Part shown: positions 33,901 to 36,900 of the stretch, one piece after another | Numbering within the stretch: position 1 is the stretch's first letter | Layout of the letters: each line of letters starts with the position of its first letter | Origin: a plasmid | Reading direction: 5' to 3' (one strand) | Sequence record: NZ_KJ588780.1 | Length of the DNA stretch: 49,804 nt | Position numbers: made by a program

Positions 33901-36900
33901 GAAGAGCTGGCTGAATGGGTGAAGGGACGGGAAGCCAAGAAGCCGCGCCAGGACAAGCACGTGGTCGCGTTCCTGGCCGTCAAGAGCGACGTTCAAGCGG
34001 CGCTCGATGCGGGCTATGCGATGAAAACGATCTGGGAGCACATGAAGGAAACCGGCCGGCTGCGCTGTCGGTACGAAACCTTCACCCAGCACGTGAAGCG
34101 GTACATCAAGGCCGCGCCGGTAGCTTCCCCGCCGCCTCCCGCCACTCCCCCGGACAGCCAGCCCAAGGGCGCGAAGCCCGAGCCGAAGGCCGCCCCGCCG
34201 GCCTCGGAATCCAAGAGTGAGCCACCCAAGATCGGCGGCTTCACGTTTGATGCGACTCCAAAGAAAGAGGATTTACTGTAATGGCGAAAATTCACATGGT
34301 TCTGCAAGGCAAGGGCGGCGTCGGCAAGTCGATGATCGCGGCCACCATCGCGCAGTACAAAGCCGGCAAGGGACAGAAGCCGCTTTGCATCGACACCGAT
34401 CCGGTGAACGCGACGTTCGAGGGCTACAAAGCCCTCAACGTGCGCCGGCTCAACATCATGGACGGCGACGAGATCAACACCCGGAATTTCGACGCCCTGG
34501 TCGAGATGATCGCGTCGGCCGAGGGCGACGTCATCATCGACAACGGGGCCAGCTCGTTCGTGCCGCTGTCGCACTACCTCATCAGCAACCAGGTGCCGGC
34601 GCTGCTCCAGGACATGGGCCACGAACTCGTGGTGCATACGGTCGTCACCGGCGGCCAGGCCCTGGTGGACACGGTGAGCGGCTTCGCCCAGCTCGCCAGC
34701 CAGTTCCCGGCCGAATGCCTGTTCGTGGTCTGGCTGAACCCGTATTGGGGGCCAATCGAGCACGAGGGCAAGGGGTTCGAGCAGTTGAAGGCGTACACGG
34801 CCAACAAGGGCCGTGTGTCCGCCATCATCCAGATTCCGGCGCTGAAAGAGGAAACCTACGGCCGCGACTTCGCCGAAATGCTCCAGGATCGGCGCACCTT
34901 CGATGAGGCCCTGGCCGATTCGGCGCTCACGATCATGACGCGGCAGCGGCTCAAGATCGTGAAAACCCAGCTCTTCGCCCAGCTCGAAAACGCGGCGGTG
35001 CTCTGATGGCGGCCGACGACAAGATCGAGGAGCTGATACGGGAGATCGCGGCCAAGCACGGCATCGCCGTGGGCCGCGACGATCCGATCTTGATCCTCCA
35101 GACCATCAACATGAAGCTGATGCAGGACAGCGCATCGGCCCAGCAGGAAATCTTGGACGCCTTCAAGTCGGAACTGGAGTCCATCGCCCACCGATGGGGT
35201 GATGACGCCAAGGGAAAGGCGGAAAGGACGCTCAACGCGGCGTTGGCGGCCAGCAAGGACGCCATGACGCGGGGAATGCAGGAGGGCGCGAAGGCGGCCG
35301 CCGAGGCCGTGCGGCGTGAGGTTGAGGCGGTGACGGCGCAGCTCGTCGCGCCGATCCGCGAGGCGCGGCGCGTCGCCATGATGAACATGGTCGCGGCCGG
35401 CATGGCGGTCGTGGCCGCCGGCCTGGCCCTGTGGGCCTCGCTGTAGATGGCGATGCGGGATCTCATCGTCAGAACTGGCGATGGTCGACCGCGCCGGCGG
35501 CATCGCCAGGTTCGGCGATGCTGGCCAGCTCCCGGCATCGTCGCTTGTGACGATGCTGCAGGATGATTCCGCCAGGCCCTCGGCGGGCCTCCCTCGCCAG
35601 AAATGGCGATGCTCGAGAAAAAAGCCCGGCGACCGCCGGGCTTCGTTTTTATGCGGGCCTGGCTGACAGGCCCAAGGACTGCGATCTCCCTGGCCGCTCC
35701 TGGGCCTGGGATTGCTTGCGCTCCTGCTCCTGCTTGCGCATCAGCAGCTCATGCCGGCGGGCGGCCTCGCGCATGGCATCCCAATCGGAAGCCAGCTCGG
35801 GGTTCTCGGCGCGCATCTTGCGCGTCGCCAGCTCTTCGATCTTCGGCGAGTGCAGGCCCATGCCTTCCTTGATCTCGCGGACGGCCTCCAGGCGCGCGTG
35901 AAGCGTCTGCAAGCGGGCCTGCTGCTGCGCCTGCTGGTTCTGCCAGGCTCGCTTAGAGCCGGGCAAGGAAAGCCGGCCAGGCGCGGACGCCTGGGTCTGC
36001 TGCAAGCGGGCCTGCTGCCGGTCGATCAGGTTTTCTAGCCTGTCCTCGATGTGCTCCACCTGGTCGTGCTTGGCCTGCACGTAGAGCGCCAGGGTTTCGG
36101 GGTAGGACTGCTCGACCGGGGCCGCCTCTAGGGTGGCCTGCTGCTCGATCTCGGCCGCCTGGGCGGCCTCCAGCAAGTCGGCTCCGGTGTCCTCGCGCGA
36201 AGCGCCGAAGGCGGCACCGCCGAGGGTGGCCGGCGCGCTGACGCGGGCCGGCTTGGTGGCGCGGCTCTCGGTGCCGCTGCCGGGGATGGTGAGTCGTTTC
36301 AAGGGCGTGCCTCCTTTTTAGCCGCTAAAGCTACATGGAGCGCCCCCGCGTCAGTTTCGGGGCCTCTGCGGCGACTGCCGCCTTGCCCTGGGCGTTGTAG
36401 CTGATGCTCTTTGCGCTCCCAATTTCAGGTACTTTATCGAAATCTGACCGAGCGTGCATGACAAAGTTCTTGCCGATCTGCTGGTACACGTTGGTGGCGT
36501 CGGCATGAACGATCACGCCGGCGTGGGTCTGCTTCTTGTCGGCCGCTTGGGCCGTGTACAGGTTGTAGATGCCGGGCTTCAACGCGCCCGCCTTGTCTAC
36601 TTTCTGATTCGTCCAAGCGCCGTCCTTTTCGGCCTGAACGATGCGTTGACCGTTCATGACCAAGAGGCGTTCTTTCATCGGGCACTCCTATGGTTGCCGT
36701 GGTTCTCAAAAGGGTGATGGTGGCCCCATGCAAGCCGCGCTCCAACAAAAAAGCCGACCTCGGCAAAGCGAGGCCGGCTCTTCCCAGCGGCCGGGTTGTG
36801 CGTTTTGTCATGGTTCCAGGGTAATTTTAAGGAAAACCAACCGATTTATCAGGTCTTTTTGCGTCCGCCGCTGGTCGGATCGGCCGCCCGGCCTTGCGCC

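Follow-up and report, generated by a model that had tools for sequence, protein, structure and literature searches.

In E. coli, stem-loops between convergent genes act as bidirectional terminators and set where converging polymerases terminate, with polymerase collisions assisting (bioRxiv 10.1101/2022.10.23.513370). An xylE terminator-probe assay has confirmed that kfrC of RA3, a related plasmid of the IncU group, is followed by a functional rho-independent terminator (PMC7414963). The spacer between traM and kfrC of an IncP-1beta plasmid contains a hairpin that resembles both. Like the bidirectional intrinsic terminators, it has a GC-rich stem of 7–9 bp, a 4-nt loop, and an A-tract and a T-tract on its two sides, and it sits between converging operons a few nucleotides from one stop codon; it differs from them in its asymmetry, with U6 on the kfrC side and UUCGUUUUU on the traM side. 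With the RA3 terminator it shares its position at the end of the kfr gene block, although RA3 belongs to another plasmid family, arranges its genes differently, and has a terminator reported to act in one direction, such that the two are likened by position. Our literature search found no accessible account of the traM–kfrC terminator or of the repeats next to it, and no transcript 3′ ends, Term-seq, or reporter results for IncP-1 plasmids at this terminator.

The window analyzed here (NZ_KJ588780.1; the whole stretch of 49,804 nt) comes from an IncP-1beta plasmid that is 100% identical to pADP-1 and pB8 in the traM–kfrC region and 99.8% identical to R751 over the shared parts. The genes traM and kfrC converge, and the hairpin is located between the two transcription units. 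The features of the spacer are as follows.

35006–35446, plus strand: traM, which closes the leader operon traK-traL-traM (ORF list; annotated as traM at the 100% identical position in pB8 and pDTC28)
35612–35617, unstranded: CTCGAG junction between the repeat module and the A-run, present in all three type I copies of the module
35618–35623, plus strand: A6 tract, template of the U6 for minus-strand (kfrC) termination and, on the plus strand, able to pair with the downstream U's
35624–35641, unstranded: putative terminator hairpin GCCCGGC-GACC-GCCGGGC, with arms at 35624–35630 and 35635–35641 and loop GACC; the stem is also found in alpha, beta-2, delta, and epsilon plasmids
35642–35650, plus strand: TTCGTTTTT, interrupted T-tract for putative plus-strand (traM-direction) termination, of which 35649–35650 overlap the kfrC stop codon (TTA on the plus strand)
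35649–36302, minus strand: kfrC (upf54.4), last gene of kfrA-kfrB-kfrC, stop codon TAA at 35649–35651 (ORF list and annotation)

The hairpin comprises seven G-C pairs, to which two A-U pairs can be added (35622–35643), with a free energy of about −15 kcal/mol. An earlier note on this DNA had described it as flanked by A6 and T5, and this description holds: the A6 tract is exact, and the T5 run (35646–35650) is offset from the GC stem by TTCG, its last two T's being bases of the kfrC stop codon. On the minus strand, the stem lies 5–7 nt 3′ of that stop codon. The pattern AAAAGCCCGGC-N4-GCCGGGCTT occurs once in the window, with 0 occurrences expected in shuffles, and both strands of 35447–35660 fold into structures far more stable than those of shuffled sequences (z = −4.8 and −4.6). 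A sigma-70 promoter scan of the traM–kfrC spacer returned no promoter, and an Rfam 15 scan of 35000–36400 at E ≤ 1 returned no match at the gathering score, only sub-threshold matches at chance level.

Terminator signals were scored across the whole window with a d'Aubenton-Carafa-type score, d, and five Markov-shuffled windows served as background. Only 10 sites in the whole window have d > 0; the maximum d of the shuffled windows ranges from 3 to 15, with 14.7 for the best random site. In the kfrC direction, the hairpin (GCCCGGC-GGUC-GCCGGGC, −15.0 kcal/mol) reaches d = 45.6, rank 3 in the window, and its tail, TTTTTTCTC / UUUUUUCUC, is an uninterrupted U-rich tract directly 3′ of the stem (T-score 4.52). 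In the traM direction, it reaches d = 15.9 (T-score 2.88), which makes it the top plus-strand site in the window yet barely exceeds the best random site, and the U-tract, UUCGUUUUU, is interrupted by CG after two U's. The five top-scoring sites mark the ends or internal boundaries of minus-strand operons, namely traC, korB, kfrC, the kfrA/kfrB spacer, and trfA. As the strong predicted terminator in the kfrA/kfrB spacer, at 36753, is upstream of kfrC, few kfr transcripts may reach the hairpin at 35624–35641, and a ribosome terminating at the nearby kfrC stop codon could disturb its folding.

In terms of conservation, an A-run/GC-hairpin/T-run arrangement with d > 0 in both orientations is found at the traM–kfrC position in 13 of 15 IncP-1 lineages. 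Spacers of 46–88 nt are filled by A-run/GCCCGGC-loop-GCCGGGC/T-run in pB5, which represents the IncP-1alpha or RK2-type plasmids in our comparisons, in pKJK5 and pAKD25 (epsilon), in pEST4011 (delta-type), in pMHAD031, and in a Xanthomonas plasmid. Other stems occupy the same place in pKAM329_2 (GCCCAGG/CCTGGGC), pHS102707 (TCCCCG/CGGGGA), and pDS1 (GCCCCGC/GCGGGGC). The GCCCGGC stem is unchanged in most lineages, and there is therefore little covariation within its class. The two orientations are nearly symmetric in the epsilon plasmids (d = 42.0 and 38.9), and the beta-2 plasmids carry a plus-side tract, TTTCGCTTT, that is weaker still than the one at 35642–35650 (d = 14.9). In the alpha and delta plasmids, the plus-side T-tract lies 13–45 nt from the kfrC stop codon, which therefore does not explain it. 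The RK2-type interval, which the earlier note expected to carry traN/traO or nothing, is 52 nt long and contains the same terminator. The names traN and traO are old or alternative labels for kfrC and kfrB in some records.

The traM stop codon of the window is about 175 nt from the hairpin because a repeat array has been inserted between them. The repeat units pointed out in the earlier note are real: with at most one mismatch allowed, the window holds 20 units of the form CATCGYC-N6-GRCGATG, where 0.15 would be expected; four of them lie at traM–kfrC, together with a degenerate fifth (35436–35455) that spans the traM stop codon and holds it in its loop. The modules formed by these units are as follows.

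15776–15885, unstranded: module C1 of type II with three units, in a probably inverted orientation compared with C2, C3, and C5; it follows the stop codon of upf30.5 and precedes the start of the D12 methyltransferase gene upf31.0
21211–21474, unstranded: module C2, type I, units at 21219, 21263, 21298, 21357, and 21411, then CTCGAG, A8 at 21444–21451, and the hairpin CCGCCTCGG-ggtgt-CCGAGGCGG at 21452–21474
35436–35611, plus strand: module C3, the copy at traM–kfrC, five units at 35436 (degenerate), 35464, 35501, 35536, and 35592
42497–42631, unstranded: module C4 of type II with three or four units, in frame within the klcB coding sequence
49545–49781, unstranded: module C5, type I, units at 49553, 49593, 49625, 49671, and 49728, then CTCGAG at 49748–49753, A7, and a hairpin at 49761–49781

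Unit orientation is unreliable when read from the loop sequence alone, and alignment at the level of whole modules was used instead; it supports the grouping of C1 with C4 and of C2 with C3 and C5, and supports the inversion between the two types only moderately. The type I modules (units at 21211–21441, 35436–35611, and 49545–49747) are collinear, with five units in order and a mean column identity of 71% in the three-way alignment. All three copies end in GATGCTCGAG, an A-run of 6–8, and a GC hairpin (aligned over 21205–21485, 35436–35655, and 49540–49804), and the "same architecture" ascribed to the units in the earlier note is therefore seen unit by unit. Each type I module abuts a minus-strand operon-end terminator through CTCGAG and the A-run, and the GC stems of the three copies differ in sequence. 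The C2 hairpin is a predicted unidirectional minus-strand terminator after traC with the highest score in the window (d = 54.4), and the C5 hairpin is another after trfA (d = 35.6). A T-rich plus-side tract is found only in C3 among the type I copies. The start of C5 adjoins a solitary TrfA iteron (about 49527–49541).

The arrangement of these units is reminiscent of REP/BIME elements, with which they share imperfect palindromes of 20–22 nt in clusters of three to five at gene 3′ ends or between convergent genes, beside terminators. They differ from REP/BIME in being plasmid-borne, in lacking a GTAG head, and in keeping one orientation per cluster where REP/BIME alternate; in addition, duplication has involved whole five-unit modules rather than single units, and a gene contains one of the copies in frame. 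The annotations of the matching plasmids list no RAYT-like gene. A family of repeated sequences in the IncP-beta plasmid R751 was reportedly described by Thorsted et al. in 1998 (J Mol Biol 282:969), who are said to have proposed an insertion hot spot and not a termination function. Those repeats belong to the same plasmid backbone and reportedly flank the oriV–trfA and trb–tra cargo regions, corresponding to C5 and to C1 and C2 here.

The hairpin at 35624–35641 with its flanks is most probably an ancestral intrinsic terminator, strong for kfrC and weaker for traM, and separate from the CATCG array. The sequence layout, the d scores, the conservation among lineages, and the separateness of the GC hairpin from the array are observed; termination itself and how efficient it is in each direction are inferred. 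Since the hairpin occurs in alpha, epsilon, and delta-type spacers without CATCG units, the terminator would be the older element, and its place between the convergent traKLM and kfrABC operons would predate the divergence of the IncP-1 subgroups. On the minus strand, a polymerase running past the kfrC stop codon would transcribe a GC stem of 7–9 bp followed by U6, which is the canonical form of a strong terminator. A plus-strand polymerase coming from traM would have to traverse some 175 nt of repeat hairpins before it meets the same stem followed by UUCGUUUUU, a weaker signal that by itself probably stops part of the transcripts; head-on collisions with kfr polymerases may help. Bidirectional rho-independent termination, as claimed in the earlier note, is thus plausible but asymmetric: the kfrC direction is upheld by its score, the traM direction is weaker and borderline, and the arrangement is kept in both orientations in 13 of 15 lineages. 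Judged from sequence comparison, the CATCG array is an add-on of the beta clade, one of three collinear copies, which would have been placed against the A-run of an existing terminator.

The borderline plus-strand score is also what would be expected if the hairpin ended the kfr operon alone and the plus-side T's were incidental, a reading we consider unlikely. The interruption in UUCGUUUUU, the two T's contributed by the kfrC stop codon, and the even weaker beta-2 tract are consistent with it. Transcripts of traKLM would then enter antisense kfrC, or would be stopped or trimmed by Rho, collisions, or exonucleases back to the repeat hairpins. Against such a unidirectional signal, a plus-side T-rich tract is kept in 13 of 15 lineages, in some of them at a distance from the stop codon, the epsilon plasmids score almost equally on the two sides, and the plus-side T's are missing from precisely those two module copies that have no converging operon. 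The view taken in the earlier note, that the repeat module and its terminal GC hairpin form a single repeated unit of which the traM–kfrC copy (its copy B) doubles as a terminator, fares worse and appears very improbable. In its favor, collinearity of the three copies extends as far as CTCGAG and the A-run, and the trfA terminator of beta plasmids (GCCGCCTCG...) is closer to the traC terminator than to the epsilon trfA terminator, which suggests that C5 was duplicated together with an A-run and part of a terminator. However, the C3 stem is unlike those of the other two copies and is instead the ancestral traM/kfrC stem that alpha, delta, and epsilon plasmids carry without an array, and pB5 and pKJK5, scanned over their whole length, are devoid of CATCG units; as these clades have the terminator without the array, the array is not needed for the terminator signature. 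Moreover, pYKBL037 has its CATCG units on the other flank of this terminator, and in L120 the array has been split off or lost through an insertion that spares the traC terminator.

A further reading, improbable in our estimation, holds that the hairpins of the array, and possibly the GC stem, serve mainly as single-stranded structures: REP-like stabilizers of the 3′ end of the traKLM mRNA, barriers to read-in, or single-stranded DNA hairpins on the transferred strand soon after conjugative entry. The marked folding stability of both strands of 35447–35660 is in line with this, and the type I hairpins fold better on the plus strand (summed ΔG on the plus and minus strands: C2, −61 and −41; C3, −54 and −47; C5, −41 and −30). 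There are 33 T·G wobbles against five C·A mismatches. The plus strand is the transferred strand, with nic between ACATCCTG and C at 33645/33646, in agreement with PMC7314908, and C3 belongs to the leading region, at 1.8 kb from nic. The better folding of the transferred strand would suggest a role as single-stranded DNA in conjugative entry, or as an RNA barrier to read-in from cargo, and not simply junk repeats. At unit 5, the variants A-T, C·T, A·G, and C-G all occur, amounting to one compensated pair. Most stem changes, however, are mismatches or wobbles and not compensatory, and shared ancestry could account for the T·G bias; the arrays are dispensable in alpha and epsilon plasmids, the C1 and C4 modules are in the other orientation, and Rfam holds no matching family for 35000–36400. 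A single-strand role would in any case be compatible with terminator function, and the intrinsic terminator remains the reading we prefer for the hairpin at 35624–35641.

For annotation, the terminator would mark where two backbone operons end in a plasmid family that is widely studied and has a broad host range. It would also mean that one hairpin has insulated the convergent traKLM and kfrABC operons from each other throughout the IncP-1 subgroups, a useful if unsurprising result. That the five-hairpin module, of about 200–260 nt, is a discrete, oriented copy-and-paste element of the beta IncP-1 plasmids, acting as single-stranded DNA in conjugative entry or as an RNA barrier to read-in from cargo, is a speculative proposal that we hold to be improbable. 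Under it, the element may have been inserted three times at exactly the U-tract/A-run side of a terminator that ends an operon, and twice in inverted form, upstream of upf31.0 and in frame in klcB. If the arrays function in establishment or insulation, they would bear on the tolerance of the IncP-1beta backbone for cargo. The beta-specific arrays border both cargo-insertion regions and the leading region, and they are strand-biased.

Several other identities for the CATCG units were considered and set aside. Against res subsites of the ParA resolvase, the Tn402-like "res hunter" insertion and the parA-proximal repeats are 70–110 bp away from the first unit, epsilon and alpha plasmids with ParA resolvase lack any CATCG units, and direct res repeats at three places would delete backbone. 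The units are not known to match Kor operators or TrfA iterons, and the one iteron near C5 merely abuts it. A genome scan for two adjacent units recovered mostly IncP-1beta contigs, together with DIAGSGD-type coding repeats that are unrelated and a small number of other hairpin families. Acquisition of a chromosomal REP family from a host was set aside, as the scan revealed no clear donor genome. The array is also present in about 1,700 resistance plasmids of enterobacteria, but these carry one captured IncP-1beta fragment and not independent copies. Related units also occur beside a 52%-identical methyltransferase in a Chloroflexi MAG, a hint of a wider distribution.

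More than 70 IncP-1β plasmids, among them pADP-1, pB8, pDTC28, and that of Burkholderia ambifaria AMMD, match the region 35300–35800 at 100% identity. The window begins at the trfA stop codon, and its end directly precedes that codon; it thus appears to be a whole plasmid opened at trfA. The gene map places the hairpin under study in a 202-nt spacer where the leader operon converges on the kfr operon, as reported.

Genes around the hairpin, from annotated relatives
33883–34281, plus: traK
34281–35006, plus: traL
35006–35446, plus: traM
35649–36302, minus: kfrC (upf54.4)
36331–36678, minus: kfrB (upf54.8)
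after kfrB, minus: kfrA

The sequence reported at the traM–kfrC junction was also confirmed: A6, the GC stem, and T5 are all present, though T5 is not contiguous with the stem, from which it is separated by TTCG.

Elements of the hairpin region
35612–35617: CTCGAG
35618–35623: A6
35624–35630: stem arm GCCCGGC, followed by the loop GACC
35635–35641: stem arm GCCGGGC
35642–35650: TTCGTTTTT, directly after the second stem arm

T5 shares its last two bases with the stop codon of kfrC (35649–35651, plus-strand TTA). The hairpin motif occurs once in the window, with no occurrence expected by chance, and folding of the spacer is far above that of shuffled sequences on both strands (z = −4.8 and −4.6). 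The spacer has no family match in Rfam.

The traM–kfrC interval was compared with those of 14 other lineages (15 in all). The spacer is just 46–88 nt in α pB5, ε pKJK5 and pAKD25, δ-type pEST4011, pMHAD031, and one Xanthomonas plasmid, and consists essentially of A4–6, GCCCGGC, a variable 3–4-nt loop, GCCGGGC, and a T-rich tract, with none of the CATCG units (CATCGYC-N6-GRCGATG hairpins) that precede the hairpin in the window. Three lineages carry another GC stem at the same position (GCCCAGG/CCTGGGC, TCCCCG/CGGGGA, and GCCCCGC/GCGGGGC). The d'Aubenton-Carafa-type score d is positive in both orientations in 13 of the 15 lineages and almost symmetric in the ε plasmids (42.0 and 38.9). The plus-side T-tract is kept even where the kfrC stop codon is 13–45 nt distant, and is therefore not a by-product of that codon. 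The RK2-like status of pB5 was confirmed by klaABC, korFG, and parABCDE; its A-run, GCCCGGC hairpin, and T-tract run counter to the expectation that an RK2-type interval would hold "traN/traO or nothing", traN/traO being alternative labels for kfrC/kfrB in some records.

Whole-plasmid scans of pB5 and pKJK5 yielded no CATCG units. The β-2 plasmids pB12, pCNB, pAOVO02, and pRSB223 have array and terminator arranged as in the window; in pYKBL037 the terminator comes first, with two CATCG units on the kfrC side. From the array-free α and ε plasmids and this reversed order, we conclude that the hairpin is the probable ancestral IncP-1 terminator and the array a later, separable addition. The earlier note had the repeat module itself doubling as terminator; the comparison points instead to an ancestral backbone hairpin merely abutted by a β-specific array.

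Predicted terminator strength was assessed across the entire window, on either strand, with d, a score built from hairpin energy per nucleotide and a weighted T-tract. Just ten sites have d > 0, and the top five all lie on the minus strand, at operon ends or internal boundaries.

Highest-scoring predicted terminators
21452, minus: after traC, d = 54.4
37978–37997 (site 37997), minus: after korB, d = 47.2
35624–35641, minus: after kfrC, d = 45.6
36728–36753 (site 36753), minus: between kfrA and kfrB, d = 38.7
49761, minus: after trfA, d = 35.6

Five Markov-simulated windows gave 2–4 sites each, with maximum d of 3 to 15. Read on the plus strand, the 35624–35641 hairpin scores 15.9; this is the top plus-strand site in the window and only marginally over the random maximum because its U-tract is UUCGUUUUU. 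A simple consensus scanner called the hairpin in the plus orientation only, probably because greedy stem extension on the minus strand eats part of the U-run. We infer that intrinsic termination at the hairpin is conserved, strong in the kfrC direction and, though weaker, plausible in the traM direction. The proposal of a terminator in both orientations is thus supported for kfrC and plausible for traM. Stem-loops between convergent E. coli genes are bidirectional terminators aided by polymerase collisions (bioRxiv 10.1101/2022.10.23.513370), and by analogy such collisions could let the weaker plus-strand signal work. In the IncU plasmid RA3, a rho-independent terminator after kfrC has been experimentally verified (PMC7414963). 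The accessible literature yielded no description of the CATCG repeats or of the traM–kfrC terminator. The predicted kfrA/kfrB-spacer terminator falls within kfrA-kfrB-kfrC, described as a tricistronic operon, and may therefore act as an attenuator; in RP4 array data, induction declines from kfrA (16.5) through kfrB (7.3) to kfrC (3.0) (PMC7314908).

As a terminator, the 35624–35641 hairpin is of a common textbook type; what interest remains attaches to the strand-biased modular hairpin arrays. Four clear units lie upstream of the hairpin (35464, 35501, 35536, and 35592), and the loop of a degenerate fifth (35436–35455) contains the stop codon of traM. The window contains 20 units, versus 0.15 expected, in five clusters.

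Clusters of CATCG units
15776–15885: C1
21219–21430: C2
traM–kfrC spacer (units 35464–35611 plus the degenerate unit): C3
42497–42631: C4
49553–49747: C5

C2, C3, and C5 (type I) align collinearly, with five units in identical order and a terminal GATGCTCGAG, A6–8, and GC hairpin, in agreement with the module architecture noted before. The GC hairpins of C2 and C5 are the minus-strand terminators of traC and trfA, respectively, and neither is followed by a plus-strand T-run. Among the three, plus-side T's occur in C3 alone, the copy facing a converging operon, which supports selection for two-way function. The ε plasmids lack CATCG units at both corresponding ends: at trfA an iteron is followed by A5 and a different hairpin, and at traC four GTGGATCTC direct repeats are followed by A8 and CCGCCCCG...CGGGGCGG. 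These ends indicate that the β arrays adjoin the A-run of presumably pre-existing terminators. The β trfA terminator resembles the traC terminator, unlike that of ε trfA, suggesting that C5 arose as a copy of C2 that took along a portion of the C2 terminator. In the region 49527–49781, the C5 array is inserted precisely between a lone TrfA iteron (GCCCCTCAAATGTCA) and the A-run preceding the trfA hairpin; in pKJK5, only 3 nt separate the iteron from a different terminator. The GTGGATCTC repeats of pKJK5 (about 33380–33450) are homologous in position to C2, and GTGGATCTC also starts unit 1 of the β arrays (GTGGATCTCATCG...); the arrays may therefore have grown out of this motif. In their paper on the R751 genome, Thorsted et al. 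(1998) reportedly described a family of repeats at oriV-trfA and tra-trb and suggested that it forms an insertion hot spot.

Plus-strand hairpins are more stable in all three type I modules, with summed ΔG of −61 versus −41 (C2), −54 versus −47 (C3), and −41 versus −30 (C5). In homologous units of diverged plasmids, plus-strand T·G wobbles outnumber C·A by 33 to 5; variants of C3 unit 5 among homologues are A-T, C·T, A·G, and C-G. The sequence ACATCCTG|CCCGCC, which we take to be the IncP nick site at oriT, lies at 33645/33646 on the plus strand. In the RP4 transcriptome, the transferred strand is the template for the kfr and kor genes (PMC7314908). Thus, the plus strand is the transferred strand, and its 5′ end precedes the C3 array into the recipient by about 1.8 kb. 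The bias is compatible with a single-stranded role, as RNA or T-strand DNA; inheritance from an asymmetric ancestor would account for it just as well. The type I arrays (21219–21430, 35464–35611, and 49553–49747) are rich in 6-bp palindromes, including XhoI, PstI, SalI, and SacI sites.

Alignment of C1 with C4 favors the direct orientation (score 84 versus 35), and C1 aligns better with the reverse complement of C2 (55 versus 34); an inversion of C4 is weakly indicated. C4 comprises three to four units in frame inside klcB (42234–43439, minus), where they encode a portion of a linker with little conservation (about residues 255–310); β KlcB has about 30 residues at this site that are missing from IncP-1α KlcB.

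A Tn402/class 1 integron-like element (17496–21132) with 25-bp inverted repeats (TGTCATTTTCAGAAGACGACTGCAC at 17496) is flanked by the 5-bp duplication ATGCT (17491–17495 and 21133–21137) and contains a 337-aa ORF (19917–20930), presumably intI1. Its insertion site is some 40 bp upstream of parA, the resolvase gene (16597–17445, minus); in cargo-free relatives (e.g., L066), the parA-res-C2 arrangement is unbroken. An IncP-1β fragment comprising truncated parA, the res region, the complete C2 array, the traC terminator, and the traC 3′ end sits between ISCR2 (ISVsa3) and IS26 in an E. coli plasmid (NZ_AP025216.1, 3340–3910; L123) and in about 1,700 other plasmid records, from Klebsiella, E. coli, and Salmonella resistance plasmids.

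The gene after C1, upf31.0 (15921–16595, plus), encodes a D12-class N6-adenine DNA methyltransferase. A Chloroflexi MAG (L025, 6461–7210) carries a 52%-identical homologue with two to three CATCG-type units immediately after it, and units nearly identical to C1 unit 3 occur on the chromosome of another Chloroflexia MAG (L052, L095). In Xanthomonas, Lysobacteraceae, and Xylophilus contigs (L046, L048, L086, and L088), related arrays adjoin the GC hairpin AAGGGCGGCC-attg-GGCCGCCCTT; they follow a small gene of 112 aa and neighbor an MmeI-family restriction-modification gene. The CATCG repeat family is therefore not limited to the IncP-1β backbone.
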